Positions 10,529-29,588 of a stretch of DNA of 64,000 nt are shown here, piece by piece. The notes below the pieces were generated by a model that made no database searches, was not told the origin of the DNA, and saw only the letters and a list, made by a program, of their open reading frames with translations. The stretch comes from an uncultured Actinomycetes bacterium (GTDB lineage Bacteria; Actinomycetota; UBA4738; JBBDTT01): positions 704,001 through 768,000 of the forward strand of contig CAVUMN010000003.1 of assembly GCA_963742735.1 (NCBI GenBank). Reading direction: 5' to 3'. Numbering within the stretch: position 1 is the first letter of the stretch; each line of letters begins with the position of its first letter. Both the position numbers and the translations under genes were made by a program.

Positions 10529-10565
10529 GTCGTCCGCACTACTCGATACGGCGTTGTCTAGGGCT

Positions 10566-10592
10566 TAAGATCGGATTCCGTACGGCCGAAAG
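10566..10592 (+). promoter_or_regulatory. sigma28/WhiG-type promoter of pilus operon
   Basis: TAAG-N15-GCCGAAAG, 9 nt before ATG 10602. Confidence 0.65.
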
Positions 10593-10601
10593 AGCGGTGG
10601 A

Positions 10602-11279
10602 ATGAGCACCCCGAACTTCTCCGAGATCGCCGCTCGGGTGGCGGCGGGCTCGGACGATGTCCGAGCCTGTCTCATCGTGAGCGCAGATGGGCTCACGCTC
10701 GGCGTGTTTCCCGAGGAGCGCGAGGACGCCGCGCGCTCCGCGTGGGGACGCATGGTCGCCTCCGGCGATCCCGAGCCCGAGCGGGGCTTCCTCGTCGTGG
10801 GCGAGGAGATCTGGGCGTTCACCCGCCGCGGCGGCTACGGCGCGCTCTGCGTCGCCGGCCGCGCGGTCCGGCCCGGATTGCTCCTCGACGACCTCGACGG
10901 CGCCCTCAAGGACCTGCACCAGGAGCGCGTGGAGCGCGCCCCGGCGCCGGCCGCCCCGGCCAGGACCCCGGCGGAGGAGCCTCGAGAGGCTCGCAAGCCG
11001 GCCGAGCCGGCGCGCCGCGGACGCACCGCGATGCATCCGGAGCCCCGGCGGGAGCGCCGGGACACGCCCCGAACGCCCGGCCCTCCGGTTCGCCGGCTGG
11101 ACCTCGAGGACGTGGACGAGCCCGACGAGGCGCCGGTGGCGCCGGAGCCGGAGCCGGAGGCGGTGCGCGAGCCGGTCGCTCGCGTCCCCGAGCGGTCCGC
11201 GCCGGTCGACGTGCCGGTGGACACCGTCGAGCTCACCCGCGAATTCGGCGGCCTGCTGGATGGACCGGGCGGTCGGTAG
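10602..11279 (+). CDS. roadblock/LC7 (MglB-like) domain protein with Pro/Glu/Arg-rich linker
   Basis: VRACLIVSADGL matches the roadblock beta-hairpin signature; low-complexity middle; short C-terminal helix. Confidence 0.6.
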   Translation: MSTPNFSEIAARVAAGSDDVRACLIVSADGLTLGVFPEEREDAARSAWGRMVASGDPEPERGFLVVGEEIWAFTRRGGYGALCVAGRAVRPGLLLDDLDGALKDLHQERVERAPAPAAPARTPAEEPREARKPAEPARRGRTAMHPEPRRERRDTPRTPGPPVRRLDLEDVDEPDEAPVAPEPEPEAVREPVARVPERSAPVDVPVDTVELTREFGGLLDGPGGR

Positions 11280-13391
11280 GTGGCCGTCCTTCGCCGCGGC
11301 CAGCCCGTCGAGCGAACCCGAGCCGGAGCGACGCCGCCACCCGAGGCCGAAGACGAGAACGGATCCCTCGAGCAGGAGCTGCAGGACGTGCCCGAAGCCC
11401 CAGAGGATCTCGACGCGGCCGAGGACCTGAGCGAGCTGGCCGATCCGCTGCTGGACGACCCCGGCCTCCAGGACCGTCCGCTCACGGACGCCCTGGCCGC
11501 CTCGTACGAGGCCTCGGCGCTGGCGCCCGGCCTGCTCGAGGTCACGACCCCCGGGGAGGAGTCCATCCCGACCGCCGCCACGTGGGAGGACCAGGAGACC
11601 CTCATCGTCGACGACGGCACCTCGGCGTGGGACGCGCAGCTTCCCTCCGCCGACCGCCCCGCCCTGAGCCTCGCCCCGTCCCCCGAGGCGATCGCCGAGC
11701 CGGGAGATGGGCCGCAGGTTCCCGCTCTGGGCGCGCTCCTGGTGGCCGGCGGCATGATCACGCGCGAGCAGCTCGCCGCGGCGCTGCGCGAGCAGGAGCG
11801 CACCGGCAAGAAGCTCGGGCGCATCCTCATCGACCTCGGTCTCATGCGCGAGGCCGACATCGTCCGGATGCTCGCCCGCCAGGTCGGCCTGGAGTTCGTC
11901 GACCTCTCCGACTACCCGGTCGACCCGTCGGCCGCGGCCCTCATCCCCGAGGCCACCGCGCGGCGGTACCTCGCCATCGGCATCGGCCACGAGGACGGCA
12001 AGCTCGTGCTGGCGATGTCCGACCCTTCGAACGTGTTCGCCCTCGACGACATCCGCACGATCACCGGCGTCGAGCTGAAGCCCGTGGTCGCCGCGGCGTC
12101 GGACGTCGAGGCGGCGATCCGGCGGTTCAGCCGTATGGACCAGGCGGTCGAGGACTTCGCGTCCGAGGCGGCGGAGGCGGCCGCGCAGGACGAGATCGAA
12201 GCCCTGGACCAGCAAAAGGCCGCGGTCGAGGAAGGCCCGATCGTCAAGCTGGTCAACCTCCTGATCACCCAGGCCGTGAACGACCGCGCGTCGGACATCC
12301 ACGTGGAGCCGACCGAGCGTGACGTGCGCATCCGGTACCGCATCGACGGTGTGCTCCACGAGGTCATGCACTCGCCCCGGAACATCCAGGCAGGCCTGTC
12401 CTCCCGCCTGAAGATCATGGCCGACATCAACATCGCCGAGCGCCGGGTTCCTCAGGACGGCCGGATGAGCGTCACGGTCTCGGGAAAGAAGATCGACCTC
12501 CGCGTGGCCACCCTGCCCACCGTCTTCGGCGAGAAGGTGGTCCTGCGGATCCTGGACACGAGCCAGGCCCTGCTCCGGCTCGAGGACCTCGGGTTCCTCT
12601 CGGAGTCCTACGAGCGCTACGAGGACTCGTTCCGCAAGCCGTACGGGGCGATCCTGGTCACCGGCCCGACCGGCTCGGGCAAGTCCACCACGCTCTACGC
12701 GACGCTGAACGTCATCAACGACGTCGAGCGCAACATCATCACGGTCGAGGACCCGGTCGAGTACCGGATGCCCGGCATCAACCAGGTCCAGATCCACACC
12801 AAGGCCGGGCTCACGTTCGCCTCGGCCCTGCGGTCGATCCTGCGCTCGGACCCGGACACGATCCTCATCGGTGAGATCCGGGACCGCGAGACGGCCATGA
12901 TCGCGGTGGAGTCCGCCCTCACCGGCCACCTGGTGCTGTCCTCGCTGCACACCAACGACGCACCCTCCGCCGTCACCCGCCTGGTCGAGATGGGCGTCGA
13001 GCCGTACCTGGTCTCGAGCGCCCTGGACTGCGTGGTCGCCCAGCGGCTCGCCCGCCAACTGTGCGAGAAGTGCAAGGAGGGGTACAAGCCGGACGAGCTC
13101 GAGCTCCAGGAGGCCGGCTTCCACCAGGACGACTGGGGCGACATCGCGGAGCTCTACCGGGCCGTCGGGTGCGGCGTCTGCGGCAAGACCGGGTTCCGGG
13201 GCCGGCTGGGTCTGTACGAGGTGATGACGGTGACGGAGGATATCGAGCGACACACGGTGGCGCGGTCGTCTTCCGAGGAGATCAGGAGAACCGCAGTGGA
13301 GCAAGGTATGTTGACCCTGCGTGACGATGGCCTCGAGAAGGTCCGGGCCGGGCTGACCACGATCGAAGAGGTGTTCAGGGTGGTCGCATGA
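11280..13391 (+). CDS. pilB: type IV pilus assembly ATPase with MshEN domain
   Basis: ASDIHVEP, ERRVPQDGR, GPTGSGKSTT, TVEDPVEY, GEIRD, CEKC...CGVC; tandem LGxxL..G..Q motifs; start uncertain. Confidence 0.93.
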   Translation: MAVLRRGQPVERTRAGATPPPEAEDENGSLEQELQDVPEAPEDLDAAEDLSELADPLLDDPGLQDRPLTDALAASYEASALAPGLLEVTTPGEESIPTAATWEDQETLIVDDGTSAWDAQLPSADRPALSLAPSPEAIAEPGDGPQVPALGALLVAGGMITREQLAAALREQERTGKKLGRILIDLGLMREADIVRMLARQVGLEFVDLSDYPVDPSAAALIPEATARRYLAIGIGHEDGKLVLAMSDPSNVFALDDIRTITGVELKPVVAAASDVEAAIRRFSRMDQAVEDFASEAAEAAAQDEIEALDQQKAAVEEGPIVKLVNLLITQAVNDRASDIHVEPTERDVRIRYRIDGVLHEVMHSPRNIQAGLSSRLKIMADINIAERRVPQDGRMSVTVSGKKIDLRVATLPTVFGEKVVLRILDTSQALLRLEDLGFLSESYERYEDSFRKPYGAILVTGPTGSGKSTTLYATLNVINDVERNIITVEDPVEYRMPGINQVQIHTKAGLTFASALRSILRSDPDTILIGEIRDRETAMIAVESALTGHLVLSSLHTNDAPSAVTRLVEMGVEPYLVSSALDCVVAQRLARQLCEKCKEGYKPDELELQEAGFHQDDWGDIAELYRAVGCGVCGKTGFRGRLGLYEVMTVTEDIERHTVARSSSEEIRRTAVEQGMLTLRDDGLEKVRAGLTTIEEVFRVVA

Positions 13392-14506
13392 GCATGCGGT
13401 CGCTGGGGCAGCAGACGCCCCAGATCGAGATCGGGGAGCTTCTCGACCTGTGTCTCGAGCGCGACGCGAGCGACCTCCACCTCACGGTGGGGACGTCGCC
13501 GATCCTGCGCGTGAACGGCTCGCTGACCCGGATCGAGCAGTTCCCAGAGCTCCAGCCCGACGAGCTGCGCCGGATGATCTACGCGATCCTCACCCAGAAG
13601 CAGCGGGAGCGCCTCGAGGAGGAGCTGGAGCTCGACCTGTCCTACAACCACCCCGGGAAAGCCCGGTTCCGGGTGAACGTCTACATCCAGCGCGACGCGC
13701 TCGGCGCCGCGTTCCGGTTCATCCCCTTCAAGATCCGCACCGTCGAGGAGCTCGGGCTCCCGCCGATCGTGGCCCAGCTGGCCCGGCTGCCCCGCGGGAT
13801 GATCATCGTCACCGGCCCGACCGGCTCGGGGAAATCGACGTCGCTCGCCGCGATGGTGGACATCATCAACACCGAGCGGGACTGCCACATCATGACCGTC
13901 GAGGACCCGATCGAGTTCCTGCACTACCACAAGCGCGCCATGGTCAATCAGCGCGAGGTGGGCACGGACACCCACGGGTTCACCAACGCCCTGCGCCACG
14001 TCCTGCGCCAGGACCCCGACGTCATTCTGGTCGGTGAGATGCGCGACCTCGAGACGATCCAGACCGGACTGACCGCCGCGGAGACCGGCCACCTGGTGCT
14101 GTGCACCCTGCACACGCAGGACGCCCCGCAGACGATCGACCGCATCATCGACGTCTTCCCGACCGCCCAGCAGCAGCAGGTTCGGGTCCAGCTCGCCTCG
14201 ACCATCCAGGGCGTCGTCACCCAGACCCTGGTCCCGACCTCCGACCGCGCCGGCCGCGCCGTGGCCACCGAGGTCATGGTCGCCACGCCCGCGGTCCGCA
14301 ACCTGATCCGCGAGGCGAAGATCCATCAGATCTACTCCTCCATGCAGGCCGGCGCGAAGTTCGGGATGCACACCATGGACTCCTCGCTCGCCGAGCTGGT
14401 CCGCCGGGGCGTCGTCACCATGCAGGAGGCGGAGGAGCGGGCCCACGACGTGGAGGAGCTCTACCGGCTCCTCGGCCGGAGCACGGGGGGCGTGGGCAGT
14501 GCCTGA
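13388..14506 (+). CDS. pilT: type IV pilus retraction ATPase
   Basis: ASDLHL, GPTGSGKST, EDPIEF, LRQDPD, GEMRD, AVRNLIRE (PilT AIRNLIRE motif), GMHT. Confidence 0.95.
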   Translation: MSMRSLGQQTPQIEIGELLDLCLERDASDLHLTVGTSPILRVNGSLTRIEQFPELQPDELRRMIYAILTQKQRERLEEELELDLSYNHPGKARFRVNVYIQRDALGAAFRFIPFKIRTVEELGLPPIVAQLARLPRGMIIVTGPTGSGKSTSLAAMVDIINTERDCHIMTVEDPIEFLHYHKRAMVNQREVGTDTHGFTNALRHVLRQDPDVILVGEMRDLETIQTGLTAAETGHLVLCTLHTQDAPQTIDRIIDVFPTAQQQQVRVQLASTIQGVVTQTLVPTSDRAGRAVATEVMVATPAVRNLIREAKIHQIYSSMQAGAKFGMHTMDSSLAELVRRGVVTMQEAEERAHDVEELYRLLGRSTGGVGSA

Positions 14507-15707
14507 GACCTTCGCCTACAAGGTCCGCGACCGTCGCGGGGAGCTGATCAGCGGCGAGCTCGTGGCGGACAACCAGGCCCTGGTCCTCAACCGGCTCCGG
14601 GAGATGGGCTACATCCCGGTCTCGGTCGAGCAGAAGAAGACCGGCATGTCTCGCGAGCTCACGATCGGCCGCGGGTTCAAGCTCAAGGACCTGGCGGTCT
14701 TCTCGCGGCAGTTCGCCACGATGATCAACTCCGGCCTCTCGCTGCTGCGCGCGCTGGCGATCCTGGAGCAGCAGACGAAGGCGAAGCCCCTGGCCCGGAC
14801 GATCGGCGCCGTCCGACTGGACGTGGAGCAGGGCGCGTCGCTGTCCCAGGCCCTCCAGAAGCACCCCAAGGCGTTCAACCGGCTGTTCGTGGCCATGGTG
14901 AAGGCCGGCGAGGCCGGCGGTGTCCTCGACTCCGTGCTGATGCGCCTCGCCGACCAGATCGAGCGCGAGGTCCAGCTGCGCCAGAAGATCAAGTCGGCGA
15001 TGACCTACCCCATCGTCGTCCTGGCGTTCGTCCTGCTGATCCTGGCGGCGATGCTGCTGTTCATCGTCCCGCAGTTCGAGACGATCTACTCGGACCTCGG
15101 CGGGACCCTGCCCTTGCCCACGCGCATGTTGCTCGGGGTGAGCAAGGCATTCCGGACGTACTGGTACATCGTCCTGGCCATCATCATCGGCAGCTCCATC
15201 GCGTTCAGCCGGTGGAAGAAGACCGAGAAGGGCCGCCACGCCTGGGACACCATCAAGCTGAAGGTCCCCGTGTTCGGGCCACTGTTCCACAAGACCGCCC
15301 TGTCGCGGTTCTCCCGGACGCTGTCCGCGCTGCTCCGCTCGGGCGTGCCGATCCTGCAGTCGCTGGACATCGTCTCGGAGACCGTCAACAACGCGATGAT
15401 CGCGGACGCCATCAACGACGTGAAGTCGAGCGTCCAGCAGGGCGAGAGCATCGCCCGGCCGCTGCTCAACCACAAGGTCTTCCCGCCGATGCTCGTGCAG
15501 ATGCTGGCGGTGGGGGAGGAGACCGGCGCCGTGGACTCGATGCTCGACAAGGTCGCGGACTTCTACGACGACGAGGTCACGGCCACCGTGGACGCCCTGA
15601 CCTCCCTGATCGAGCCGATCATGATCGCGATCATCGGCGGCATGGTCGGCGCGGCCGTCGTCGCGCTCTACATGCCGATGTTCAACATCATCAACCTGAT
15701 CCAGTAG
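14499..15707 (+). CDS. pilC: type IV pilus inner-membrane platform protein
   Basis: FSRQFATMINSG, AGEAGG, IKSAMTYP, VGEETG, LIEP, YMPMF. Confidence 0.95.
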   Translation: MPETFAYKVRDRRGELISGELVADNQALVLNRLREMGYIPVSVEQKKTGMSRELTIGRGFKLKDLAVFSRQFATMINSGLSLLRALAILEQQTKAKPLARTIGAVRLDVEQGASLSQALQKHPKAFNRLFVAMVKAGEAGGVLDSVLMRLADQIEREVQLRQKIKSAMTYPIVVLAFVLLILAAMLLFIVPQFETIYSDLGGTLPLPTRMLLGVSKAFRTYWYIVLAIIIGSSIAFSRWKKTEKGRHAWDTIKLKVPVFGPLFHKTALSRFSRTLSALLRSGVPILQSLDIVSETVNNAMIADAINDVKSSVQQGESIARPLLNHKVFPPMLVQMLAVGEETGAVDSMLDKVADFYDDEVTATVDALTSLIEPIMIAIIGGMVGAAVVALYMPMFNIINLIQ

Positions 15708-15717
15708 CCCTCCCGCT

Positions 15718-15744
15718 TCAGTCCGAACCCCCTCGAGCCGATGG
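15718..15744 (+). promoter_or_regulatory. sigma28/WhiG-type promoter (leaderless pilin mRNA)
   Basis: TCAG-N15-GCCGATGG, 7 nt before ATG 15752. Confidence 0.65.
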
Positions 15745-15751
15745 TGTACCC

Positions 15752-16228
15752 ATGCCTTCGGACGGCCGGCGCAGTCGCCGGAACGATGAATCCGGCTTCA
15801 CGCTCATCGAGCTGATGGTGGTGGTCCTGATCATCGGGATCCTCATCGCCGTAGCGCTCCCGGTCATGCTCGGGGCGCGCACGCGAACCCAGGACCGCCG
15901 GGCGCACTCCGACCTCCGCAACGGGGTGGCCACGGCCAAGGTCTGGTACTCGGACTCGGAGACGTTCTCCGGCTTCACCGGCGGGCTGGCCGGCACGGCG
16001 GAGTCCCTCGAGCCGAACCTGGACTGGGGCGGCCCCGCGGATCCCGGCGCCACCCGGCAGGTGTCCATCGTCGTGGCCTCGGGCGACGACCTGCTGATCG
16101 TCCGCCGGAGCGACTCGGGCCGCTACTTCTGCCTGTCCGACCAGTTCGCCGCGCCCGGGTTCAGCCGGGGCGGCGGCGCGACCTTCGCCGCAGTCGACAC
16201 CCACGCGGAGTGCGTGGGCGGATGGTAG
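15752..16228 (+). CDS. type IV pilin paralog 1
   Basis: Class III signal RRNDESG/FTLIELMVVVLIIGIL; C-terminal FC...C..W. Confidence 0.9.
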   Translation: MPSDGRRSRRNDESGFTLIELMVVVLIIGILIAVALPVMLGARTRTQDRRAHSDLRNGVATAKVWYSDSETFSGFTGGLAGTAESLEPNLDWGGPADPGATRQVSIVVASGDDLLIVRRSDSGRYFCLSDQFAAPGFSRGGGATFAAVDTHAECVGGW

Positions 16229-16286
16229 GTCTGTACGGAATCTGTCGTAGGTCCAATGGATGGTGGCATCCGGACGAAACCAAGCA

Positions 16287-16313
16287 TAGAGTTTCCCGCG
16301 ATCGGGTCGATAG
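16287..16313 (+). promoter_or_regulatory. sigma28-type promoter of putative major pilin
   Basis: TAGAGTTT-N11-GTCGATAG vs extended consensus TAAAGTTT-N11-GCCGATAA. Confidence 0.6.
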
Positions 16314-16393
16314 GGCCCGGTAGCAGGCCTCTGGGGCGCCCCTCCCGGGGTACTTCGGATCGCCTGACTCCACGACGGAGGGAGGTGAAACGA

Positions 16394-16846
16394 ATGCTCA
16401 TGAAGATCAACCGCAAGCTCCGGGAAGAGGATGGGTTTACTCTCATCGAACTCATGGTGGTGGTCCTGATCATCGGGATCCTGATCGCCATCGCCCTTCC
16501 GACGTTCCTGGGGGCTAGGCGGCGTGCTCAGGACCGGGCGGCTCAGTCCGATCTCCGCAACGCGTTGGCGGCGGCGAAGGTGTACTTCACCGACGACGAC
16601 ACGTACACGGGATTCGACGCAGTCGACGGCGAGGCCATCGAGCCCTCGCTCGACTGGACGACCGGTGTCGGTGACGACGCAGTCCTGATCACGTCGGCAG
16701 CCGCGGGTGAGGTCTCGCTTCAGGCCGACAGCGCGTCCGGTGATGTGTTCTGCATCGCGGACTCGTCCACCGCCGGACAGGGAACCGTCCGCGGTCGTGG
16801 CGCTGCAGCGACCTTCCTCGCGTGTAGCAACCTGGCCGACTGGTAG
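16394..16846 (+). CDS. pilA: type IV pilin, probable major subunit
   Basis: Strong SD GGAGGTG; REEDG/FTLIELMVVVLIIGILIAIALP; own promoter motif and downstream terminator. Confidence 0.88.
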   Translation: MLMKINRKLREEDGFTLIELMVVVLIIGILIAIALPTFLGARRRAQDRAAQSDLRNALAAAKVYFTDDDTYTGFDAVDGEAIEPSLDWTTGVGDDAVLITSAAAGEVSLQADSASGDVFCIADSSTAGQGTVRGRGAAATFLACSNLADW

Positions 16847-16866
16847 ACCGACCGACGAAGCAACGT

Positions 16867-16896
16867 GAAAGGGGCGGCCTCTGGGCCGCCCCTTTC
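16867..16896 (+). terminator. intrinsic terminator/stabilising hairpin after pilA
   Basis: Perfect 13-bp stem GAAAGGGGCGGCC-TCTG-GGCCGCCCCTTTC. Confidence 0.8.
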
Positions 16897-16917
16897 GCGT
16901 ATCGAAAGGACGTGCCC

Positions 16918-17376
16918 GTGTGGCGTGATCTGGGCCCCAGGATCCGGCGCGAGGACGGCTTCACGCTCCTGGAGCTGATGATGGTCGTGCTCATCATCGG
17001 CATCCTGCTCTCGATCGCCCTGCCGACGTACCTGGGGGCGAAGAACCGCGCCCAGGATCGCTCCGCGCAGTCGGACCTGCGCTCGGCGATCGCCGCCGCC
17101 AAGGTGTACTTCACCGACTCCGACACCTTCGCCGGCTTCGATTCCGTCGCGGCCGAGGGGGTGGAACCCTCCTTGATCTGGTCCGATGGCGCGGGCGCCC
17201 CGGTGGGGCAGTCCCAGGTCCGGATCGCGATGGCCGCCCCCGGCGAGGTGGTCATGAACGCCGACAGCAACAGCGCGGCGCTGTTCTGCATCGCCGAGCA
17301 GGCAGGACTGGGCGTGGTCAAGGGGTTGGGGGCGGCGGCGACCTTCCTGGATTGCGCCGGCTTCGCGGACTGGTGA
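16918..17376 (+). CDS. type IV pilin paralog 3
   Basis: RREDG/FTLLELMMVVLIIGILL; shares AAAKVYFTD and AAATFLxC..ADW with pilA; GTG 16918 fits SD AAAGGA (alternative start 16912). Confidence 0.9.
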   Translation: MWRDLGPRIRREDGFTLLELMMVVLIIGILLSIALPTYLGAKNRAQDRSAQSDLRSAIAAAKVYFTDSDTFAGFDSVAAEGVEPSLIWSDGAGAPVGQSQVRIAMAAPGEVVMNADSNSAALFCIAEQAGLGVVKGLGAAATFLDCAGFADW

Positions 17377-17486
17377 CGCCCGCGGGCGTACCCTGATCGG
17401 GACATGTCCCCGCGAATCCCCCAAATGGCCGACGGCCGGACGTCCCCTTTCGAGGAAACCCGGTCCGGGTGGAGAATTGATCCAAC

Positions 17487-19286
17487 GTGAGCACGATCGC
17501 GCCCTTGCTCGCCTGGCTTCGCCGCCGGCTCCGAACCGAGGAGCGAGGCTTCACTCTCGTTGAGCTCATGGTGGCCCAGGGGATCATCCTGGTCTCGCTG
17601 CTGTCCCTGGCCTACACCGCGACGATCGGGTTCACCGACATCGCGCTCGCCCGGCAGCGGCAGGGCGCCAACGGGCTCGCCAACCGGCTCATCGAACAGG
17701 TGCGGGCCCTGCCCTTCCAGCACATCCAGACGGGCCTGTCGACGACCGACTCCACGGTCGTCGCCGGTGGCGACAGCGGCAAGATCCTGGGGAGCGGGTG
17801 CGGCACCGGGAACCTGTGCTACCGGCCGACGACGACGGCTCCGCTGGAGCGCATCGCCCGCGGCAACAATCCGGCCTCCGTACCCCTCAACCCCCACCGG
17901 GCGACCACGACCGTGGGCGTGACCCCGTACACGCGCTACGTCTACATCACCGTCGTCAACAACGACCTCACCCTGAACGCGTACCGGATCACGGTGGTGG
18001 TCGAGTGGACGCCGCCCCACCGGGGCGCCGTCCGGGCCAGCGTCCAGGCCCAGACGATCGCGTACTCCCCACAGGGGTGCACGTCGACGGCCACCCATCC
18101 CTTCGCCGCTCCCTGCCAGCCGTTCATCTACTCGGGGGCGCAGCTGCCGGCGGCGAGCATCCAGGTCATCCCGGAGCCCAACCAGTCGTTCACCGGCGGG
18201 ATCCGAGGGCTCGACCTCGAGAAGGCCTCCATCTACTCCGTGGGCCAGTCGGCGAACGCCCAGGCCGAGCAGGTCACCGCGGTCGCCGGCCGGGCCCTCA
18301 CGTCGGGGATCGACCTCAAGCGCATCGGCGTCTCGGCCACGCCGTCCGGGCAGCAGGTCGTGCTCTCGACGGCGGACAACGACCCCAGCCAGCCCGGAGG
18401 GGAGCACGACGACCTGAGCTCCGTGCTGGGCAGCGGCGGGACGACCCTGTCGCTCGTCGACGACGACCTCTTCGCGGTGAGCCACACGGCCGGCGACACG
18501 ATCAGCGCGATGGGCACCATGAACGCCGGGACGTCGCATCCCTGCGGCGGGCAGACGGACGACCTGGCCTGCGCGCGCACGACCGGGACGGGCAACAGCC
18601 TGAACCGGGTGCGGCTCCAGGTGGACCAGGGAGGCGTTGACCTGGAGGACGCGGTCATCGCCCAGATGAGCGGCTCGGCGATCGCCAGCAGCGCCCTGGT
18701 GCACCGCGATCTCCCCACGGGACTCGACGGAAGCATGGGCGTTCAGCTCACCCGGTCCCTTCCCAACGTCCTGCTGGGCGGCCTGCCCACGGACTTCGCC
18801 GGCCCGACCGGATGGAACACCGCGCTCGGGCTGGTGAGCGTGTCCGGCTACTCGGCCACCCTGGAGGCCCAGGCGGGGGAGAGCACCTCGGCGCTGCCCC
18901 TCTCGGGCGCGGTGACCGCCGGCACGGTCCAGTTCTGGAACGGGACCGGCTACACGACGATCCCCACCTCGACCCTCACCTCGACGGTGCAGACGTCGTT
19001 CCCGGTGGCGTTCGACGTCACCCGGATCATCGACGGCAAGGACGTCCGCGTCGTGATGGACGGCAACTTCCTGGCCGGCGGGCTCACGATCTCCTCGACC
19101 GGCACGTCCACGAACCGGACTCAGGCGGAGGTCCGGGCCCTGCCCGCCCTGGCCGGCTCGATGATCTACCGGATCTTCATCGGCCCGAACACCGACTCGG
19201 AGCAGCTCCAGGCCGCGCTCACCTTCAACGTGGACCTCGGCACCCAGATCGCGTCGGCCTCGTACTCGACGGCCCCGGGAGGCTGA
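17487..19286 (+). CDS. large minor pilin (PilV-position), module 1
   Basis: EERG/FTLVELMVAQGIIL class III signal; 599 aa Thr/Ser/Gly-rich with paired Cys. Confidence 0.82.
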   Translation: MSTIAPLLAWLRRRLRTEERGFTLVELMVAQGIILVSLLSLAYTATIGFTDIALARQRQGANGLANRLIEQVRALPFQHIQTGLSTTDSTVVAGGDSGKILGSGCGTGNLCYRPTTTAPLERIARGNNPASVPLNPHRATTTVGVTPYTRYVYITVVNNDLTLNAYRITVVVEWTPPHRGAVRASVQAQTIAYSPQGCTSTATHPFAAPCQPFIYSGAQLPAASIQVIPEPNQSFTGGIRGLDLEKASIYSVGQSANAQAEQVTAVAGRALTSGIDLKRIGVSATPSGQQVVLSTADNDPSQPGGEHDDLSSVLGSGGTTLSLVDDDLFAVSHTAGDTISAMGTMNAGTSHPCGGQTDDLACARTTGTGNSLNRVRLQVDQGGVDLEDAVIAQMSGSAIASSALVHRDLPTGLDGSMGVQLTRSLPNVLLGGLPTDFAGPTGWNTALGLVSVSGYSATLEAQAGESTSALPLSGAVTAGTVQFWNGTGYTTIPTSTLTSTVQTSFPVAFDVTRIIDGKDVRVVMDGNFLAGGLTISSTGTSTNRTQAEVRALPALAGSMIYRIFIGPNTDSEQLQAALTFNVDLGTQIASASYSTAPGG

Positions 19287-19930
19287 TGGAGATGCTCATC
19301 TGGCTTCGCGACCGGCTTCGGCCCCAGGAGGGGATGACCCTGGTGGAGATGATGGTCACCACGGCCCTGCTGGGCGTCGTCAGCGCGATGTTCATGGCGA
19401 TCATGGCCTCGGTGCAGTCCGGCGTGGAGAAACAGATCGATCGCAGCAACGACAACGACCAGGTCCGCCTGGCCGTCCAGCAGCTCGACCGTGAGATCCG
19501 ATCGGGGAACGTGCTCTACAACCCGAACAACACGGCCTACCTCCCCTCGGGGACGCCGGCCGGGATGGGCATGCTCGTCTACACCCAGAACAACGCGAAC
19601 ATCCGCAACCCCGGGAACCGCTGCGTCCAGTGGCGGATCATCAACGGGGAGCTCCAGCGACGGGACTGGGCGACGGGGGACCCCACCGGGACCGTCTCGA
19701 CGTGGCGGGTCATCGCCGACAACGTGGTGAACGCGACGCTCTCGCCGCAGGTCCCGGCGTTCGTGCTGGACACCGACCCGAACAAGGGGAGCCGGATCGT
19801 CAACGTCACCATCGTGACCCAGACCAACGTGAATTCGGGCAACCCCATCCGCATCTCGGCCTCGCTCACGGGGCGCAACACCTCGTACGGCTACCCGTTG
19901 AGCGTCTGCGCGGCGGTGCCGGCCGCATGA
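19286..19930 (+). CDS. minor pilin (PilW/GspJ-like), module 1
   Basis: ATG overlaps TGA; PQEG/MTLVEMMV; LDREIRSG. Confidence 0.82.
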   Translation: MEMLIWLRDRLRPQEGMTLVEMMVTTALLGVVSAMFMAIMASVQSGVEKQIDRSNDNDQVRLAVQQLDREIRSGNVLYNPNNTAYLPSGTPAGMGMLVYTQNNANIRNPGNRCVQWRIINGELQRRDWATGDPTGTVSTWRVIADNVVNATLSPQVPAFVLDTDPNKGSRIVNVTIVTQTNVNSGNPIRISASLTGRNTSYGYPLSVCAAVPAA

Positions 19931-19941
19931 GAGGAGGAGCG

Positions 19942-21405
19942 ATGTTCCTCAGGCTCCACCGGGACGAGCGGGGCGTGGCCCTGATCACCGCGATGCTCGT
20001 GGGGATGGTCGTGCTCTCGCTGGGGCTGGTGACGATCCAGCTCTCGGCGCACAACGCCGACTCGAGCTCCCTGGACCGCAAGCGCCTCCAGGCCATCCAC
20101 GCGGCCGAGGCGGGCCTGGACCTGTACCTGGCCCAGCTGCCGCGCACCGCGATCGGCGCTATCCAGTGCACGCCCGCCGTCCAGACGCTGCCCCTGGAGG
20201 GCGGCGCGCAGTACCAGATCACGGCGCAGTTCTATCCCACGTTCCCGGGGGTGACGGGTCAGCAGCTGACCTGCCCCCTGACCTCGACGACCGTGCCGGC
20301 GGGCGCGGTCATCACGTCGCGGGGCACCGCCGTTGCCGTGGGCAACGTACGGGCCGTCTCGCGGACGTTCCAGACCGAGGTCGCCCTGAACCCCATCCTC
20401 GGCGGCTTCGCCCCCGCGATCTTCTCCGACGTCCAGTTCAGCGTGAACAACAACCTGAACGTGTACGGCAACACCGGGAACGACGCCGACATGTACACGA
20501 ACGGCAACTTCGTCTGCTCGAACTCCTCGCTGGACTACGGGAGCGTGAACGCCCAGGGCTTCGCCTCGCTCTCCAACTCCTGCACCGTCGCCCAGGACCT
20601 GCGGGTGGGCGGGAACATCACCATGACGCAGAGCTCGCGCGTGGGCCACGACGCCATCTCCTCGGCCGGCACGATCACGCTGGCGAACTCGGCTCAGATC
20701 GGCAACAACGCCCGCGCCGCGGGGGCCTGCTCGGGATGCGTCCAGGGCTCGAGCGTGCTGGGGACGATCACCACCAACAGCAGCTCGGCGCCGCCCCCCC
20801 AGATCGCCATGCCCACCGTCAACTGGGCGGGCGGGACGGCCTGGTCGACGGCCGGCTACACCATCGCGAGCTTCAGCGACTGCACGGCGGCCAGGAACCA
20901 CATCCAGAACGTGGTCAGCGGGAGCAGCACCCCGACCGTCGTCCGGATCACTTCCTCCTGCGCACTGGCGTTCAGCAGCTCGGCCGACGTCTTCCTGGGC
21001 GCGAACCTGGCGATCATCACCAACGGGTCGATCAGCACGTCCAACCACTCCATCTTCAAGTCGACCACGAGCACCCCCCGGGAGATGTTCTTCATCGTCC
21101 CGCGGGACATCTTCACGCCGGCCACCCCGCCTGATTCCCGGGCCACCAACTGCAGCGGGACGACCAACAACATCAATATGGTCAACAACACCGACATCGT
21201 GAACGTGCGGCTGTTCCTGTACAGCCCCTGCACGATCAACCTGAACAACAACAACCTCGGGCTGGGCGGCCAGATCTTCGGCCAGAACGTGAACATCAAC
21301 AATCACTTCTCGTTCACGTACCGGCCGATGCTGATCCCGGGGGCGGGGAGCATCGTCGGGTTCAACTCGGACATCGCGTACCTTCGCGAGATCACGAACG
21401 CGTAG
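19942..21405 (+). CDS. minor pilin (PilX/GspK-like, no Glu5), module 1
   Basis: SD GAGGAGG; DERG/VALITAML; QAIHAAEAGL PilX N-terminal motif; Asn/Ser-rich C-terminal region. Confidence 0.82.
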   Translation: MFLRLHRDERGVALITAMLVGMVVLSLGLVTIQLSAHNADSSSLDRKRLQAIHAAEAGLDLYLAQLPRTAIGAIQCTPAVQTLPLEGGAQYQITAQFYPTFPGVTGQQLTCPLTSTTVPAGAVITSRGTAVAVGNVRAVSRTFQTEVALNPILGGFAPAIFSDVQFSVNNNLNVYGNTGNDADMYTNGNFVCSNSSLDYGSVNAQGFASLSNSCTVAQDLRVGGNITMTQSSRVGHDAISSAGTITLANSAQIGNNARAAGACSGCVQGSSVLGTITTNSSSAPPPQIAMPTVNWAGGTAWSTAGYTIASFSDCTAARNHIQNVVSGSSTPTVVRITSSCALAFSSSADVFLGANLAIITNGSISTSNHSIFKSTTSTPREMFFIVPRDIFTPATPPDSRATNCSGTTNNINMVNNTDIVNVRLFLYSPCTINLNNNNLGLGGQIFGQNVNINNHFSFTYRPMLIPGAGSIVGFNSDIAYLREITNA

Positions 21406-21419
21406 CCGAACGACGAGCT

Positions 21420-21446
21420 TCAGCGGGCGCCCTCCCGGGCCGATAT
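21420..21446 (+). promoter_or_regulatory. sigma28/WhiG-type promoter of minor-pilin module 2
   Basis: TCAG-N15-GCCGATAT, 7 nt before ATG 21454. Confidence 0.7.
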
Positions 21447-21453
21447 CTGGTGC

Positions 21454-23205
21454 ATGGCGACCATCCGCCGCATCCTTCGCGGCGCCCGCGCACGACTGGC
21501 TCACCCTCGGGATGAGACCGGCTTCACGCTGGTCGAGCTCATGGTGGCGCAGGGGATCATCCTGGTCTCGCTGCTCTCTCTGGCGTACACGGCCACGGTC
21601 GGCTTCTCGGACATCGCCCTGGCCCGCCAGCGCCAGGGGGCGAACGGGATCGCCAACCAGATCCTCGAACAGGTCCGCGCGCTGCCCTTCGACACCCTGA
21701 AGCGCGGCCTGGCGAACTCCGACCTTCCCGCCGGCGATCCGGCGATCATCACCTCCGGGTGCCCCGGAAACGCCCCGTACTGCTACCGGTCCTCCGCCTC
21801 GGCGGCGCTCGAGGCGATCCCCCGCGGCAACAACGCCGCGGTGGCGCCGCTGGTGCCGCACCGGGCCAACGTGACGGTCGGGCAGGTCACGTACAGCCGG
21901 GCGGTCTACGTCACCTACTATCAGAACGACGCCTCCCTCAACGCGTTCCGGGTCACGGTGGTCGTGTCCTGGACGAACCCGGCCCGCCGGGGCGTCGACT
22001 CCACCGTCGTCGCCCAGAGCGTCATGTACTCGCCGCCGGGGTGCGTCTCCACGGCCACCCACCCGTTCGCGGCCCCGTGCCAGCCGTTCTTCTACGGGGC
22101 GGCGCAGAACCCGGCCGGCCAGATCTCGATCGCGGGGACGCTGGCCGGGATCGATCTCACGAAGGCGACGCTGTGGACCCCGGCGCAGTCCTCGACCATG
22201 CAGGTCGAGCAGATCTCGGCCGTGCAGGGGTCGTCCACCACCGCCGGCATGAGCCTGTCCCTGGCGGGGAACGAGACGACCACGGGACGGGTCACGGCGA
22301 ACTCCTCGGCGGAGAACGACCCCGCGCAGCCGGGCCAGGACTACGAGACCGCGTCCACCTCCGGATCGAGCCAGATCCTCTCGGCGGGAAGCGGCAACAC
22401 CATCGCGCTCTCGGTGGCCGCCGGGTCGAGCGGAAGCACGATCAGCACCACCTCGGCCAACACCTCGCACCCGTGCGCCTCACAGACCGACGACCAGGCC
22501 TGCGGGCGATCGACCGCCACGCAGGGGGCGGCGCTCAGCCTGACGGCCGGGCTCAACACCGGCTTCCTGGGCCTGGGGACCGCCAACGTGGTCTCGGTCG
22601 CCACGTACACGACGACCGGCACCACCAACCGTGAGCTGGACGCCTCGGGAGACGGCAAGATCGCGGTCACGGCCAGCCGGAGCATCGGCGACGTCCGCAT
22701 CGGCGGCCTCCCGACGGGCCTCGGGGCGCTCCTGCTCCCGTTCGGCTGGCAGGGCCATCTGGTTCGGGTCACGGGGTACAGCGACTCGCTCACGGCGCAG
22801 ACCGGCATCAACACCGCCGCGCCGAGCGTGACCGCCGGCGGCACCATCAGTGTCTGGAACGGGTTCGGCTACACGAACGTGAACATCGTTCCCGGGGCGT
22901 CGGTGAACGTCCCCGTTACGTCGATCACCGTGCAGGACCCGCTCTCCCCCGGAGGTCTGCTTCGGATCACGCTGGGGGCCACGGTGCGGACGGGCGGCAC
23001 GACGGCGACGGCCACCTCGAAGGTTTGCTCGCCCTCCTGCCTGAACACGCGCACGGCGGCCACCGCGTCGGCCGCCTCGCCGGTCATCGTGGACCTCACG
23101 CTCGACGTCACCTTCGCGGGGAACTCGATCGCGGACCTCGACGTGCACGTCGACCTGGGAACCCTCCAGGTCACCGGCGCGTACACGGAGGCCCCCGGTG
23201 GATGA
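21454..23205 (+). CDS. large minor pilin (PilV-position), module 2
   Basis: DETG/FTLVELMVAQGIIL; paralog of 17487..19286. Confidence 0.82.
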   Translation: MATIRRILRGARARLAHPRDETGFTLVELMVAQGIILVSLLSLAYTATVGFSDIALARQRQGANGIANQILEQVRALPFDTLKRGLANSDLPAGDPAIITSGCPGNAPYCYRSSASAALEAIPRGNNAAVAPLVPHRANVTVGQVTYSRAVYVTYYQNDASLNAFRVTVVVSWTNPARRGVDSTVVAQSVMYSPPGCVSTATHPFAAPCQPFFYGAAQNPAGQISIAGTLAGIDLTKATLWTPAQSSTMQVEQISAVQGSSTTAGMSLSLAGNETTTGRVTANSSAENDPAQPGQDYETASTSGSSQILSAGSGNTIALSVAAGSSGSTISTTSANTSHPCASQTDDQACGRSTATQGAALSLTAGLNTGFLGLGTANVVSVATYTTTGTTNRELDASGDGKIAVTASRSIGDVRIGGLPTGLGALLLPFGWQGHLVRVTGYSDSLTAQTGINTAAPSVTAGGTISVWNGFGYTNVNIVPGASVNVPVTSITVQDPLSPGGLLRITLGATVRTGGTTATATSKVCSPSCLNTRTAATASAASPVIVDLTLDVTFAGNSIADLDVHVDLGTLQVTGAYTEAPGG

Positions 23206-23818
23206 GCTGCGCCGGCGCCTGCGCTCGGAGTCGGGGATGACGCTCCTGGAGCTGATGGTCACCACCAGCCTGCTCGGGATCGTCAGCGTGATGTTCCTGT
23301 CGATCATGACCTCGGTGCAGTCCGGGGTGCACAAGGAGACGGACCGGAGCAACGACAACGACCAGGCTCGCCTGGCGGTCCAGCAGCTCGACCGGGAGAT
23401 CCGTTCGGGGAACGTGCTCTACGACCCGGCCTCGGAGCCGGCCCCGTTCACCCCCTATTACAGCCTCCGCGTGTACACGCAGGCCAACGCCAACATCCGG
23501 ACTCCCGGCAACCGCTGCGTGCAGTGGCGGATCCTCGATGGGGAGCTCCTCCGGCGGGACTGGGACGGGGTGAACCCCGCGGCGACGGTCTCGCCGTGGC
23601 GGGTGGTCGCCGACAGCCTGGTCAACCAGGACCTCGGCGTCCCGGCGTTCGTCCTCGACGCCGACCCTCAGAAGGGCGGGCGCATCGTGAACGTGACGAT
23701 CGTGACCCAGACGGACGCCGATTCCGGCAACCCCGTGCGGCTCTCCGTCTCGCTCACCGGGCGGAACACCTCCTACGGCTACCCCGTGAACGTCTGCGGG
23801 ACGATCCCGGCGGCGTAG
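23198..23818 (+). CDS. minor pilin (PilW/GspJ-like), module 2
   Basis: SESG/MTLLELMV; paralog of 19286..19930. Confidence 0.82.
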   Translation: MDELRRRLRSESGMTLLELMVTTSLLGIVSVMFLSIMTSVQSGVHKETDRSNDNDQARLAVQQLDREIRSGNVLYDPASEPAPFTPYYSLRVYTQANANIRTPGNRCVQWRILDGELLRRDWDGVNPAATVSPWRVVADSLVNQDLGVPAFVLDADPQKGGRIVNVTIVTQTDADSGNPVRLSVSLTGRNTSYGYPVNVCGTIPAA

Positions 23819-25258
23819 ATGGGACGGCTCGCGCTGCGACGGCTGCATCGGGACGAGCGGGGCGTGGCCCTGGTCACCGCGATGCTGGTCGGCATGGTCG
23901 TCCTCTCGCTCAGCCTGATCACCGTCCAGCTGTCCGCGCACAACGTCGACGCGAGCTCGAGCGACCGCAAGCGCGTCCAGGCCATCCACGCGGCGGAGGC
24001 GGGCCTGGACTCCTACCTGGCCCTGCTCGCGAGGACCCCGATCGGCAGCATCCAGTGCACGCCGCCCCCGAGCTTGCTCCCGATCGACCCCGGGGCGCAG
24101 TTTCAGATCACCGCCACGTACTACCCGACCTACCCCGGGGTCGTGGGCCAGGAGCTGTCCTGCCCGCTGAGCCCCAGCGCTCCGCCGAAGGGGGCGGTCA
24201 TCACCTCACGCGGCACCGCGATGCCGGGAAGCGGGTCGAGGCCGGTGTCCCGAACCATGCAGACCGAGGTCCGGCTGAGCCCGATCTTCGGCGGCTACAA
24301 CTTCGCGATCTTCTCCAACAGCGGGATGAGCGTCCAGAACAACCTGACCGTGAACGGCTACGCCGGCAACGACGGCGACATCTACACGAACGGGAACTTC
24401 GCGTGCACCAACGGGACGACCGACTACGGGACGGTGACCACGCAGGGGAGCGCGTCGGTCTCGAACACCTGCAACATCCTCCAGGACCTGCGCGCCAACG
24501 GGAACATCACGATGTCGAACTCGGGGCACGTCGGGCACGACGCCACCTCGTCCACGGGGTCGATCACCATGCTGAACTCGTCGCGGATCGACAACAACGC
24601 GCGCGCCGGCACGACGTGCGTGGGGTGCGTGCAGGGGAACAACGTCCTTGGCAACCTCACCACCTCGTCGCCGTCGCCCGCGCCGATCCTGTACCCGCTG
24701 CCGCAGATCGACTACGTCGCGGCCTCGTGGCAGGCGGAGGGCTACACCGCCCACAACGACTCAAGCTGCGCCACGGCGAAGACGTTCGTCCAGTCGCTGG
24801 CCGCCTCGTCCACTCCCTACGTGGAACGGATCGGCACCACGTGCGCCCTGGCGTTCAGCAACAACAGCACGATCACCCTGGGCTCGGACCTGGCCATCAT
24901 CACCAACGGGTCGATCTCCACGGGGAACTTCACGGTCTTCAGGTCCTCGAACGCGGCGGAGCCGAGGGACCTGCACCTCATCGTTCCCGTGAGCGCCGTC
25001 TCGAGCTGCACGGGAACGCAGAACATCACCTTCGCGAACAACACCGACTTCCAGAACGTGCGGGTGTTCGTGTACACGCCGTGCACCGCCTCGATGAACA
25101 ACAACAACATCGGGCTGGGAGGCCAGATCATCGGGGGCACCGTCAACCTGCTCAACCACTTCGCGTTCACCTACTACCCGATGCTCGTGCCCGGGGCCGG
25201 ATCGATCACCGGCTACACGCCGGACATCGCGTACCTCCGCGAGATCACCAACACCTAG
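23819..25258 (+). CDS. minor pilin (PilX/GspK-like), module 2
   Basis: DERG/VALVTAML; QAIHAAEAGL; paralog of 19942..21405. Confidence 0.82.
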   Translation: MGRLALRRLHRDERGVALVTAMLVGMVVLSLSLITVQLSAHNVDASSSDRKRVQAIHAAEAGLDSYLALLARTPIGSIQCTPPPSLLPIDPGAQFQITATYYPTYPGVVGQELSCPLSPSAPPKGAVITSRGTAMPGSGSRPVSRTMQTEVRLSPIFGGYNFAIFSNSGMSVQNNLTVNGYAGNDGDIYTNGNFACTNGTTDYGTVTTQGSASVSNTCNILQDLRANGNITMSNSGHVGHDATSSTGSITMLNSSRIDNNARAGTTCVGCVQGNNVLGNLTTSSPSPAPILYPLPQIDYVAASWQAEGYTAHNDSSCATAKTFVQSLAASSTPYVERIGTTCALAFSNNSTITLGSDLAIITNGSISTGNFTVFRSSNAAEPRDLHLIVPVSAVSSCTGTQNITFANNTDFQNVRVFVYTPCTASMNNNNIGLGGQIIGGTVNLLNHFAFTYYPMLVPGAGSITGYTPDIAYLREITNT

Positions 25259-25279
25259 GGTCCGGGTACGCTTCGCATC

Positions 25280-26044
25280 GTGGCCGTGGCGATCGCCATC
25301 CTGTTCGGACTGACGTTCGGCAGCTTCCTGACCGTCGTCGTGCACCGCACCCCCCGCCGTGAGCCGATCGGGCGGGGGAGGAGCCGGTGCCCCTCGTGCG
25401 GGACGACGCTCACCTGGCGGGACAACATCCCGGTCGTCTCCTTCCTGGTCCTGCGGGGGCGGTGCCGGCACTGCGGGGCCCGGATCTCGCCGCGGTACCC
25501 GCTGATCGAGCTCGGGACCGCCGCGCTGTTCGCCGGCGCGGTGATCCGGTACTCGGACGACGCGGTCGCGGCCGTGATCGCCCCGTTCCTGGGCGTGCTC
25601 CTGGCCCTGGCCCTGGTGGATCTGGAGCACCGGATCATCCCCAACGCCGTCGTCTATCCGGCCCTGCCGGTCTTCGCGGTGGCGATCGTGGCCCTCGACC
25701 TGGCCGGCCGGGCGGCGAGCGTCGTCGACGCCGGCATCGGGTTCCTCGCCTACGGGGGAGGGCTGCTCGTGATCGCCCTCATCCGTCCCGGGGGGATGGG
25801 GATGGGCGACGTGAAGCTCGCCGGGCTGATCGGGCTGGTCCTCGGGAGCCAGGGACTCGGCGTCGTCGGCGTCGCCGCGGCGCTCGGGATCCTCTTGGGC
25901 GGGCTCGGGGGAGTGGTGGCGCTCGCCGTCGGCCGGTCCCGGAAGTCCGCCCTGCCGTTCGGGCCGTTCCTGGCCGCGGGGGCCATCGCGGCCGCCCTGT
26001 GGGGCCGGGAGATCGCCGACGCCTACCTGTCGCTGCTGACCTAG
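25280..26044 (+). CDS. pilD: prepilin peptidase / N-methyltransferase (A24)
   Basis: GSFLTVVVHR, CPSC...CRHC, VDLEHRIIPN, GMGDVKL, LPFGPFL. Confidence 0.93.
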   Translation: MAVAIAILFGLTFGSFLTVVVHRTPRREPIGRGRSRCPSCGTTLTWRDNIPVVSFLVLRGRCRHCGARISPRYPLIELGTAALFAGAVIRYSDDAVAAVIAPFLGVLLALALVDLEHRIIPNAVVYPALPVFAVAIVALDLAGRAASVVDAGIGFLAYGGGLLVIALIRPGGMGMGDVKLAGLIGLVLGSQGLGVVGVAAALGILLGGLGGVVALAVGRSRKSALPFGPFLAAGAIAAALWGREIADAYLSLLT

Positions 26045-26142
26045 TCCGGAGGGTCCCGCGCGGTCGAGCGCACCTCCGTCAACGGCCGGGAATTACAGTT
26101 CTGTCATTGAACAGGCGGGCAAAAAAGTGTCTCCCGTGATGT

Positions 26143-26171
26143 TTGACTACGACCGTGCGCATCGTTAGCCT
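26143..26171 (+). promoter_or_regulatory. sigmaA-type promoter upstream of HTH-pilMNOP
   Basis: TTGACT-N17-TAGCCT with an upstream A6 tract at 26121-26126. Confidence 0.65.
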
Positions 26172-26187
26172 CGGGCCCAGCGGTGGT

Positions 26188-26241
26188 GCTGTGAGTCTTG
26201 TTGAAGCTGTGATAGCTGTTAAACTTGTTGAAGTTGTGAAA
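26188..26241 (+). repeat. six tandem 9-bp direct repeats (putative operator)
   Basis: GCTGTGAGT CTTGTTGAA GCTGTGATA GCTGTTAAA CTTGTTGAA GTTGTGAAA; invariant TGT at positions 3-5. Confidence 0.85.
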
Positions 26242-26264
26242 GCCGCAGGTCAGAGGGCCGAAAA
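26238..26264 (+). promoter_or_regulatory. sigma28/WhiG-type promoter of HTH-pilMNOP
   Basis: GAAA-N15-GCCGAAAA, 9 nt before ATG 26274. Confidence 0.55.
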
Positions 26265-26273
26265 GGGGTAGCG

Positions 26274-28895: not shown

Positions 28896-28898
28896 TCG

Positions 28899-29435: not shown

Positions 29436-29490
29436 GCAAACACCACCCATAGACGTCCGGCGGCCACACCGGGGGGAGCGGCCGCCGGCC

Positions 29491-29526: not shown

Positions 29527-29588
29527 CATTTGAAGCCTCAGCTGGGTTCCACCCTCGGCCTACCAGTCCTGCCTACACTGTTCGAACG

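Follow-up and report, generated by a model that had tools for sequence, protein, structure and literature searches.

The window analysed here (the whole stretch of 64,000 nucleotides (nt), positions 704001-768000 of contig C3 of genome G000, which is 3.08 Mb long with 71% G+C, 5 contigs and 88.9% completeness) was found to contain a type IV pilus locus, in which three intergenic sites (sites 1, 2 and 4) and probably a fourth (site 3) likely represent promoters for RNA polymerase with a single sigma-28-family factor, an ortholog of WhiG. We infer which sigma factor reads these sites, where transcription starts and that it depends on cyclic di-GMP (c-di-GMP). An earlier sequence-only reading had proposed a regulon of five sigma-28/WhiG promoters across the locus; sites 1-4 were found to be credible by their motif, enrichment and conservation, whereas site 5 was not. 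On sequence grounds the core of that reading is supported, with a sigma-28-family factor encoded outside the window appearing to drive the pilus genes, mostly via leaderless mRNAs.

All five strings were read directly in the sequence (Table 1), each consisting of a tetramer followed by 15 nt and an octamer starting with G(C/T)CGA(A/T). All were intergenic according to our own codon-usage gene calls, and four were found 7-9 nt before an ATG, as had been described. The CGA core of the -10 box was present at sites 1-4 (GCCGAAAG, GCCGATGG, GTCGATAG and GCCGATAT) as well as in the orthologous sites of relatives. The actinobacterial -35 feature was found as TTAAG at site 1 and as TTCAG at sites 2 and 4, in each case 15 nt before the -10 box, with a weaker fit, TAGAG(TTT), at site 3; it was lacking at site 5, where the position weight matrix (PWM) score was below 8. 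The -35 box had been taken as TAAA and this did not hold: the box was found to be CTCAAG, CTTCAG or CTTAAG, one base further upstream than first placed, and the combination TAAA-N15-GCCGA had no match in the genome.

The possibility that the sites are chance matches of a flexible pattern in AT-poorer intergenic DNA was weighed on the frequency of the motif. The gene calls came from a codon-usage gene finder made for the analysis (2,872 genes, 88.8% coding genome-wide), which left a noncoding share of 11.2% of the genome and of 2,748 of the 64,000 bases in the window. The loose pattern [TG]NRR-N15-GYCGAWRN, fitted after the fact, had 16 matches on both strands of the window, five of them noncoding and exactly equal to sites 1-5. 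Genome-wide it had 681 matches (0.127/kb in noncoding against 0.109/kb in coding DNA) with no enrichment and is therefore no evidence by itself; the -35 tetramers as first placed also matched TAAA at only 2-3 of 4 positions, and both findings favour chance. A sharper motif arose from a list of boxes of the GCCGA type that lie a set distance from start codons. This strict form, CT(CA|TC|TA)AG-N14-16-GCCGA(A/T), was found in 11 noncoding and 4 coding copies (binomial P ~3e-8), and sites 1, 2 and 4 were three of the 11; in the controls with wrong spacers the noncoding share was 1/14 (9-11 nt), 0/5 (19-21 nt) and 1/7 (24-26 nt).

A PWM was trained on 41 sites of relatives with the own genome left out. 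Places scoring at least 16 in the own genome were 19 noncoding and 18 coding, an 8.2-fold excess in density, and among the sites of the window the score was 16.5 for site 4, 15.4 for site 1, 12.5 for site 2 and below 8 for sites 3 and 5. Behind the noncoding matches of at least 13, the gap from the -10 box to the start codon was exactly 7 nt in 7 of 22 genes and 7-9 nt in 9 of 22. Genome-wide, GCCGA(A/T) starts at -15 from the start codon in 11 genes, against ~3 at neighbouring positions. The spike at 7 nt from start codons fits leaderless transcripts that begin on the start codon. Beyond the pilus locus, the noncoding part of the window gave a single match of at least 10 (33198, minus strand; score 13.2, 17% coding), without a near downstream gene. 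The enrichment was tied to the spacer length and to noncoding DNA, and together with this spike, the orthologous sites across families and the clear footprints in a same-genus genome described below it makes the chance reading highly improbable as a whole; it is contradicted for sites 1, 2 and 4 and likely for site 5 only. By these refined tests, sites 1, 2, 4 and probably 3 exceed chance, and site 5 does not.

Contig C3, which makes up 31% of the genome, was found to hold 10 of the 11 noncoding strict-motif sites, and the PWM matches were more evenly spread. A further match, CTCAAC-N14-GCCGATGC (window 15465-15492, PWM 17.6), was present in the 3'-terminal part of pilC, with 259 nt between it and pilA1. 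It may be an internal promoter or a chance match, and its conservation is uninformative because of coding constraint.

Conservation of the sites in related loci

The relatives comprised 20 pilus loci of published genomes, of which one belongs to the same genus and all others to different families within the order. A strict form of the motif was found 26 times in 572 kb-strand of these loci, with 19 matches located within 130 nt upstream of orthologs: those of the gene behind site 1 (5/18), the pilins (4/22), the module gene behind site 4 (5/11), pilB (3/21), pilM (1/12) and pilC (1/17). No strict match was found in the same interval upstream of the helix-turn-helix (HTH) gene (0/11), pilT (0/19), pilD (0/13), pilN (0/10), aroC (0/8) or the second and third module genes (0/6 and 0/9). 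With the looser score of at least 13, the numbers rose to 17/18 for the site-1 gene, 8/24 for the pilins and 7/12 for the module gene, against 18/1000 random windows of 130 nt drawn from these loci. By eye, nearly all orthologs of the site-1 gene were found to carry CTCAAG, CTTAAG or TTCAAG, followed by 15-16 nt and NNCGA(T/C/G). Of 80 named PilB loci, 12 likewise had a strict site no more than 130 nt ahead of a pil ortholog, and the 80 include L044 of the unpublished genome G031 (no match there); the nearest of the named loci were metagenome-assembled genomes labelled Actinomycetota, Acidimicrobiia, Frankiales or Mycobacteriales, with 53-66% identity.

In the same-genus genome, site 1 was found to contain the invariant -35 block GGGCTTAAGATCG followed by the -10 box GTCGAAAG, with indels in the flanks. 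Site 4 kept both boxes and its geometry amid a diverged spacer, diverged upstream DNA and insertions of 25 nt and 5 nt, and at both sites neither the 15-nt spacing nor the distance to the ATG had changed. Site 2 was weakly conserved, as CTCCAG-N15-GCCGACAG located 8 nt before the ATG.

Site 3 was found to be one of only two places in the genome with at least 13 of 16 matches to the extended sigma-28 consensus, which is TAAAGTTT-N11-GCCGATAA; both were noncoding, the other being a leaderless site at 7 nt elsewhere in the genome. The pilin genes of relatives contained a site 44-69 nt upstream, with a score of at least 12 in 15/24 genes against 59/1000 random windows. An alternative site for pilA2, TCCAAT-N15-GACGAAAC (16252-16280, PWM 8.9), was rejected, its -10 box not being kept in the same-genus genome. 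Upstream of site 3, a block at window 16235-16268 (TACGGAAT..TG.CGTA....AAT..ATGGTGG) was kept in the same-genus genome and could be an activator site or an upstream promoter element of the pilA2 promoter. Soon after the -10 box the pilin 5' leader opens with a GC-rich hairpin (window 16320-16345, GGGGCGCCCC), and many pilin leaders of relatives begin likewise with a hairpin GCGCGC...GCGCGC, which may act as a 5' stabilising stem-loop.

The promoters would divide the locus into transcription units. Site 1 would serve the unit of the 225-amino-acid (aa) gene, pilB, pilT and pilC, site 2 would serve pilA1, site 3 would serve pilA2 with a leader and a ribosome-binding site followed by a hairpin, and site 4 would serve the second minor-pilin module with pilD; the pilM-N-O unit would instead use a housekeeping-type promoter. 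At sites 1, 2 and 4 only 7-9 nt separate the end of the -10 box from the start codon, so transcription would begin at or next to the ATG and the mRNAs would be leaderless; the pilA1 start behind site 2 was found without a Shine-Dalgarno sequence. The earlier proposal of mostly leaderless mRNAs fits the geometry of sites 1, 2 and 4, but not site 3, the main conserved pilin promoter, which has a leader.

The region upstream of the HTH gene

If all five sites were WhiG promoters, site 5 would give a second, leaderless transcript of HTH-pilMNO. Its -10 box GCCGAAAA carries 7 of the 8 consensus positions and ends 9 nt before an ATG, and one relative without the HTH gene was found to contain CTCAAG-N14-GTCGAAAC 56 nt before pilM. 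Against this, site 5 scored below 8 with the PWM and no strict site was present before the HTH gene in any of the 11 relatives having it, where instead a TTGACA-like box followed by 17-18 nt and a TANNNT-like box was found, as TTGA(C/A)N-N17/18-T(A/T)NNN(T/G) located 109-180 nt upstream of the HTH gene in 11/11 relatives, with a leader ending in GGAGG. The corresponding sigma-70-type promoter in the window is followed by six phased 9-nt units (Table 1), and runs with 9-nt spacing were found both here and in 6 or more of the 11 relatives. The proposed -35 tetramer GAAA of site 5 falls inside the last unit of this conserved repeat array, and its -10 box overlaps a purine-rich stretch that corresponds to GGAGG in relatives. 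Because of the conserved sigma-70-type promoter, the repeat array and the purine-rich overlap, site 5 is regarded as a look-alike lying in the leader of a sigma-70-type promoter; the proposal that it is a WhiG promoter was not upheld, and a regulon of all five sites is unlikely.

No array was reported by Tandem Repeats Finder over 26050-26300, and a sigma-70 consensus scan of 10000-29999 returned no site; the scan misses TTGACT-N17-TAGCCT because it requires 4/6 matches to TATAAT. The HTH protein matched the NCBIfam model 'excise' with 63.5 bits, and the BldC subfamily with 28.2 against a cut-off of 77. BldC, likewise small and comparable to it in size and class of fold, binds 9-bp direct repeats head to tail (PMC5859096). 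By analogy, the HTH gene may regulate itself and pilMNO via the 9-nt repeats, with the cut-off of the BldC subfamily not being reached.

WhiG, RsiG and the predicted regulon

A single gene of the FliA/WhiG family was found above the TIGR02479 cut-off (G000:C3:589438-590232; 267.7 bits against 189.6). It lies ~114 kb before the window, in agreement with the earlier expectation that the sigma factor would be encoded outside it. The protein reached the WhiG equivalog NF004935 (343.1 against 343), and its best solved relative was Streptomyces WhiG (6pfv_A, E 6.5e-90). The exact RsiG motif E(X)3S(X)2R(X)3Q(X)3D had no match in the predicted proteins or in the six frames. RsiG was first located with one mismatch allowed (C4:1073602-1074138, 178 aa) and then confirmed by PF22802, with 58.8 bits against a cut-off of 27 in two stretches, and by an alignment to 6pfj_T (E 1.6e-15) over nearly the whole length (residues 25-171 of 176; 22-173 is also given). 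The two motif copies were found to be L(X)3S(X)2R(X)3Q(X)3D and E(X)3S(X)2R(X)3F(X)3D, with 4 of 5 positions each. The genome encodes one WhiG and a twin-motif RsiG. FlhA and flagellin were not found in this 88.9% complete genome. Among the 31 genomes of the order, including the unpublished G006, G014, G027 and G030, WhiG was present in 29, RsiG in 30 and FlhA in none. The presence of RsiG and the failure to find flagellar FlhA and flagellin fit the WhiG2 clade, to which this WhiG may belong. Twin-motif RsiG with bound c-di-GMP probably holds WhiG inactive, so that transcription of the pilus genes would respond to the level of c-di-GMP.

It is quite unlikely that the motif, though real and conserved, serves a different sigma factor or is bound by a transcription factor, with the WhiG targets located elsewhere. 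The genome was found to contain at least 30 further sigma-70-region-4 matches, and in genome G003 (93% complete) WhiG was not found, yet its pilus locus (L130) carries the motif. On the other side, a -10 box GCCGAT(A) with a CGA core, a -35 box T(C/A)A and a spacer of 15-16 nt equal the FliA/WhiG specificity as published (PMC8325347, PMC13595943), and only one gene passes the FliA/WhiG cut-off, with the runner-up at 124.5 bits against the required 189.6. A spacer of fixed length without conserved sequence, together with the fixed 7 nt to start codons, fits a promoter and not an operator.

Several points weigh against the assignment of sites 1-4 to WhiG. The evidence is computational throughout, and each RsiG c-di-GMP motif departs at one position (Leu for Glu; Phe for Gln), so that binding of c-di-GMP is not assured. 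At 88.9% completeness the absence of flagellar genes is unproven. Among the sites, site 2 scores only 12.5 and both of its boxes differ in the same-genus genome (CTCCAG and GCCGACAG). Site 3 scores below 8 with the PWM of relatives and contains G in the -35 box where relatives have A, and its same-genus counterpart, CTACAG-N15-TCCGAGAC, leaves a weaker footprint. The strict regular expression misses many relatives (5/18, 4/22 and 5/11 orthologs found) and the higher counts depend on the looser score, the seed of which was chosen after the sites had been seen. The relatives are kin and hence not independent trials, and gene starts rest on a simple home-made gene finder. With these points weighed, WhiG-dependent promoters at sites 1, 2 and 4, and probably at site 3, were retained as the preferred explanation.

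The other candidate targets in the genome were two response regulators of the LuxR type, a further response regulator with a GGDEF gene behind it, a receiver of the CheY type, a histidine kinase, a PilT-like ATPase, an ANTAR protein and several secreted proteins, and the rest of the predicted regulon thereby resembles published WhiG regulons. Both GGDEF genes of the genome were preceded by weaker sigma-28-like sites (G000:C3:812622-814398 and G000:C4:84463-86422). ATCAAG-N14-ACCGATAC (16.0) was present before the response regulator, followed by CTCAGC-N15-GCCGATAG (12.7) before the adjacent GGDEF gene; the second GGDEF gene had GTAAAG-N15-GCCGAGAT (9.1) 44 nt upstream.

One of the six perfect GCCGATAA boxes in the genome was found before the gene preceding rsiG, as TTTCAG-N14-GCCGATAA with a 7-nt gap to the GTG start of a beta-keto acid cleavage enzyme (BKACE) gene (L137 1126-3293; G000:C4:1072727-1074897). 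Behind the BKACE gene lie rsiG and a gene with an HD_5 domain, which may encode a c-di-GMP phosphodiesterase. If WhiG did drive this rsiG unit, the result would be a feedback loop. Near L137 1410 the reading frame of the BKACE gene appears to shift; a pseudogene or a fault in the assembly could account for this.

A wider reading is put forward tentatively, with the balance of judgement tipping slightly against it: throughout the order, apparently uncultured and non-flagellated, a WhiG-RsiG switch with the pilus locus as its conserved core regulon and with feedback loops of its own, via the rsiG unit and both diguanylate-cyclase genes, would operate beside a housekeeping promoter for pilMNO, gated by the BldC-like HTH protein on 9-bp repeats. 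If this were true, the promoters of the pilB operon (ahead of its first gene), of the pilins and of the minor-pilin module would have persisted from the time when the families split, and one input would govern the pilus fibre and motor genes while another governed the platform genes.

Layout of the locus and comparison with known systems

By the gene finder and Pfam, the locus was found to contain aroE, the 225-aa gene, pilB, pilT, pilC, two prepilin genes and a third pilin-like gene, followed by two paralogous minor-pilin modules, pilD, a 70-aa HTH_17 gene, pilM, pilN, pilO, a 169-aa gene and aroC. The locus and its synteny recur throughout the order. The intergenic gaps sum to 917 nt and hold all five sites, and pilB, pilT and pilC overlap or abut.

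Table 1. Positions of the candidate promoter sites, genes and other elements of the pilus locus in the window (in brackets for sites 1-5: the tetramer as placed by the sequence-only reading, and the -10 box)
Feature	Position	Strand	Remarks
Site 1, CTTAAG-N15-GCCGAAAG	10564..10592 (TAAG 10566-10569; -10 10585-10592)	+	9 nt before ATG 10602, first gene of the pilB operon
Conserved 225-aa protein, first gene after site 1	10602..11279	+	family-less
pilB (703 aa), pilT (372 aa), pilC (402 aa)	11280..15707	+	Pfam T2SSE, MshEN, T2SSF
Site 2, CTTCAG-N15-GCCGATGG	15716..15744 (TCAG 15718-15721; -10 15737-15744)	+	7 nt before pilA1 ATG 15752
pilA1, prepilin, 158 aa	15752..16228	+	Pfam N_methyl 37.6 bits
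Site 3, TAGAGTTT-N11-GTCGATAG	16287..16313 (TAGA 16287-16290; -10 16306-16313)	+	~80 nt before pilA2 ATG 16394
pilA2, prepilin, 150 aa	16394..16846	+	Pfam N_methyl; strong ribosome-binding site GGAGGGAGG
GC-rich hairpin after pilA2, AAAGGGGCGGCC-TCTG-GGCCGCCCCTTT	16868..16896	+	likely terminator, read in the sequence
Pilin-like gene and first minor-pilin module (599, 214, 487 aa)	16912..21405	+	Pfam N_methyl, PilX_N
Site 4, CTTCAG-N15-GCCGATAT	21418..21446 (TCAG 21420-21423; -10 21439-21446)	+	7 nt before ATG 21454, second minor-pilin module
Second minor-pilin module (583, 206, 479 aa) and prepilin peptidase PilD (254 aa)	21454..26044	+	Pfam N_methyl, PilX_N, A24_N_bact, Peptidase_A24
Sigma-70-type promoter, TTGACT-N17-TAGCCT	26143..26171	+	~100 nt before the HTH gene; read by eye and regular expression
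Six phased 9-nt units, TGTGAGTCT TGTTGAAGC TGTGATAGC TGTTAAACT TGTTGAAGT TGTGAAAGC	26190..26243	+	TGTKRAWRN; reading and regular expression
Site 5, GAAA-N15-GCCGAAAA	26238..26264 (GAAA 26238-26241; -10 26257-26264)	+	9 nt before ATG 26274
HTH_17/excisionase-family gene (70 aa), pilM, pilN, pilO, 169-aa gene	26274..29435	+	Pfam HTH_17, PilM_2, PilN, PilO

The 225-aa protein had no Pfam or NCBIfam match even at E<=1; its orthologs sit between aroE and pilB in 18 loci of relatives, and in Atlas it matched actinobacterial hypothetical clusters only, plus a weak Roadblock/LC7 lead (0.84, rank 13). The N-terminus of PilB in the 703-aa call was found to contain an acidic, proline-rich extension of ~140 aa (window 11280-11700). 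The open frames of PilB in relatives were mostly 560-680 aa and matched only from about residue 140, and 3 of 21 relatives contained a WhiG-type site just upstream of pilB; the true pilB start may lie further downstream than called. The hairpin after pilA2 was omitted by the terminator scan because its T run is short, and its sole Rfam match was sub-threshold and hairpin-like. Rfam over window 9500-30000 at E<=1 gave two sub-threshold matches only and no riboswitch. The two three-gene modules (window 17487-21405 and 21454-25258) were found to be paralogous by cross-matches, with a WhiG-type site at the second only; relatives contained one or two modules. A near-perfect palindrome, GGGACATGTCCC, with an adjacent block was present before the 599-aa gene (window 17399-17440) and was kept in the same-genus genome amid diverged surroundings. 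It bears no resemblance to the WhiG motif and may serve a different regulator.

The principle of WhiG control over pilus genes has already been published (Rubrobacter in 2021; a phylum-wide prediction in 2026), so the present finding is confirmatory and not surprising to a specialist. With it, an uncultured, non-flagellated order of actinobacteria joins the lineages with apparent WhiG-RsiG control of type IV pili. The position-by-position conservation of promoters across families is stronger comparative evidence than motif matches in a single genome, and the sites provide concrete promoter coordinates, with a constant leaderless geometry, that can be tested. A caution also arises, one of the five proposed sites being a look-alike in a different regulatory region.

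In Rubrobacter radiotolerans, an (RsiG)2-(c-di-GMP)2-WhiG switch is described as controlling type IV pilus genes with mapped starts (PMC8325347). Like the present organism, Rubrobacter is an actinobacterium with WhiG and RsiG, described as non-flagellated and non-sporulating; it contains several sigma-28-type promoters inside the pil cluster, three in number and each with a mapped start, and c-di-GMP enzymes are also among its targets (PMC8325347). It differs in that its RsiG is described as a single-motif homodimer, whereas two motif-bearing stretches were found here, as in Streptomyces; its promoters were found with TAAA / GCCGATAA (PMC8325347), whereas the -35 box here is CTCAAG or CTTCAG; and its starts were mapped (PMC8325347), whereas those here are predicted.

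The phylum-wide WhiG prediction gives the consensus -35 XT(C/A)AX, a 16-nt spacer and a -10 box GCCGA with a fixed CGA core (PMC13595943), with which the strict motif agrees. Its recurrent predicted targets include type IV pilus clusters, response regulators and c-di-GMP enzymes, and its WhiG2 clade is reported to co-occur with RsiG and not with flagella (PMC13595943). Across 673 annotated genomes, the pilus targets named there belong to Cellulomonadaceae, Cryptosporangiaceae, Sanguibacteraceae, Rubrobacteraceae and Jonesiaceae (PMC13595943). The word 'leaderless' is absent from PMC13595943.

In Actinoplanes missouriensis, FliA-family sigma factors are cited as directing zoospore flagellar and type IV pilus genes (PMC8325347, PMC13595943), which likewise places type IV pilus genes of an actinobacterium under a sigma-28-family factor. 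Actinoplanes is described as flagellated with several FliA paralogs and without RsiG (PMC8325347), whereas one WhiG, RsiG and no flagellar genes were found here. The closest solved relatives of both WhiG and RsiG belong to the switch of Streptomyces venezuelae (6pfj, 6pfv), which shares the twin-helix form of RsiG. The Streptomyces targets are the sporulation regulators whiI and whiH, whereas the predicted targets here are pilus genes and LuxR-type response regulators, the latter perhaps, but not necessarily, counterparts of WhiI or BldM.

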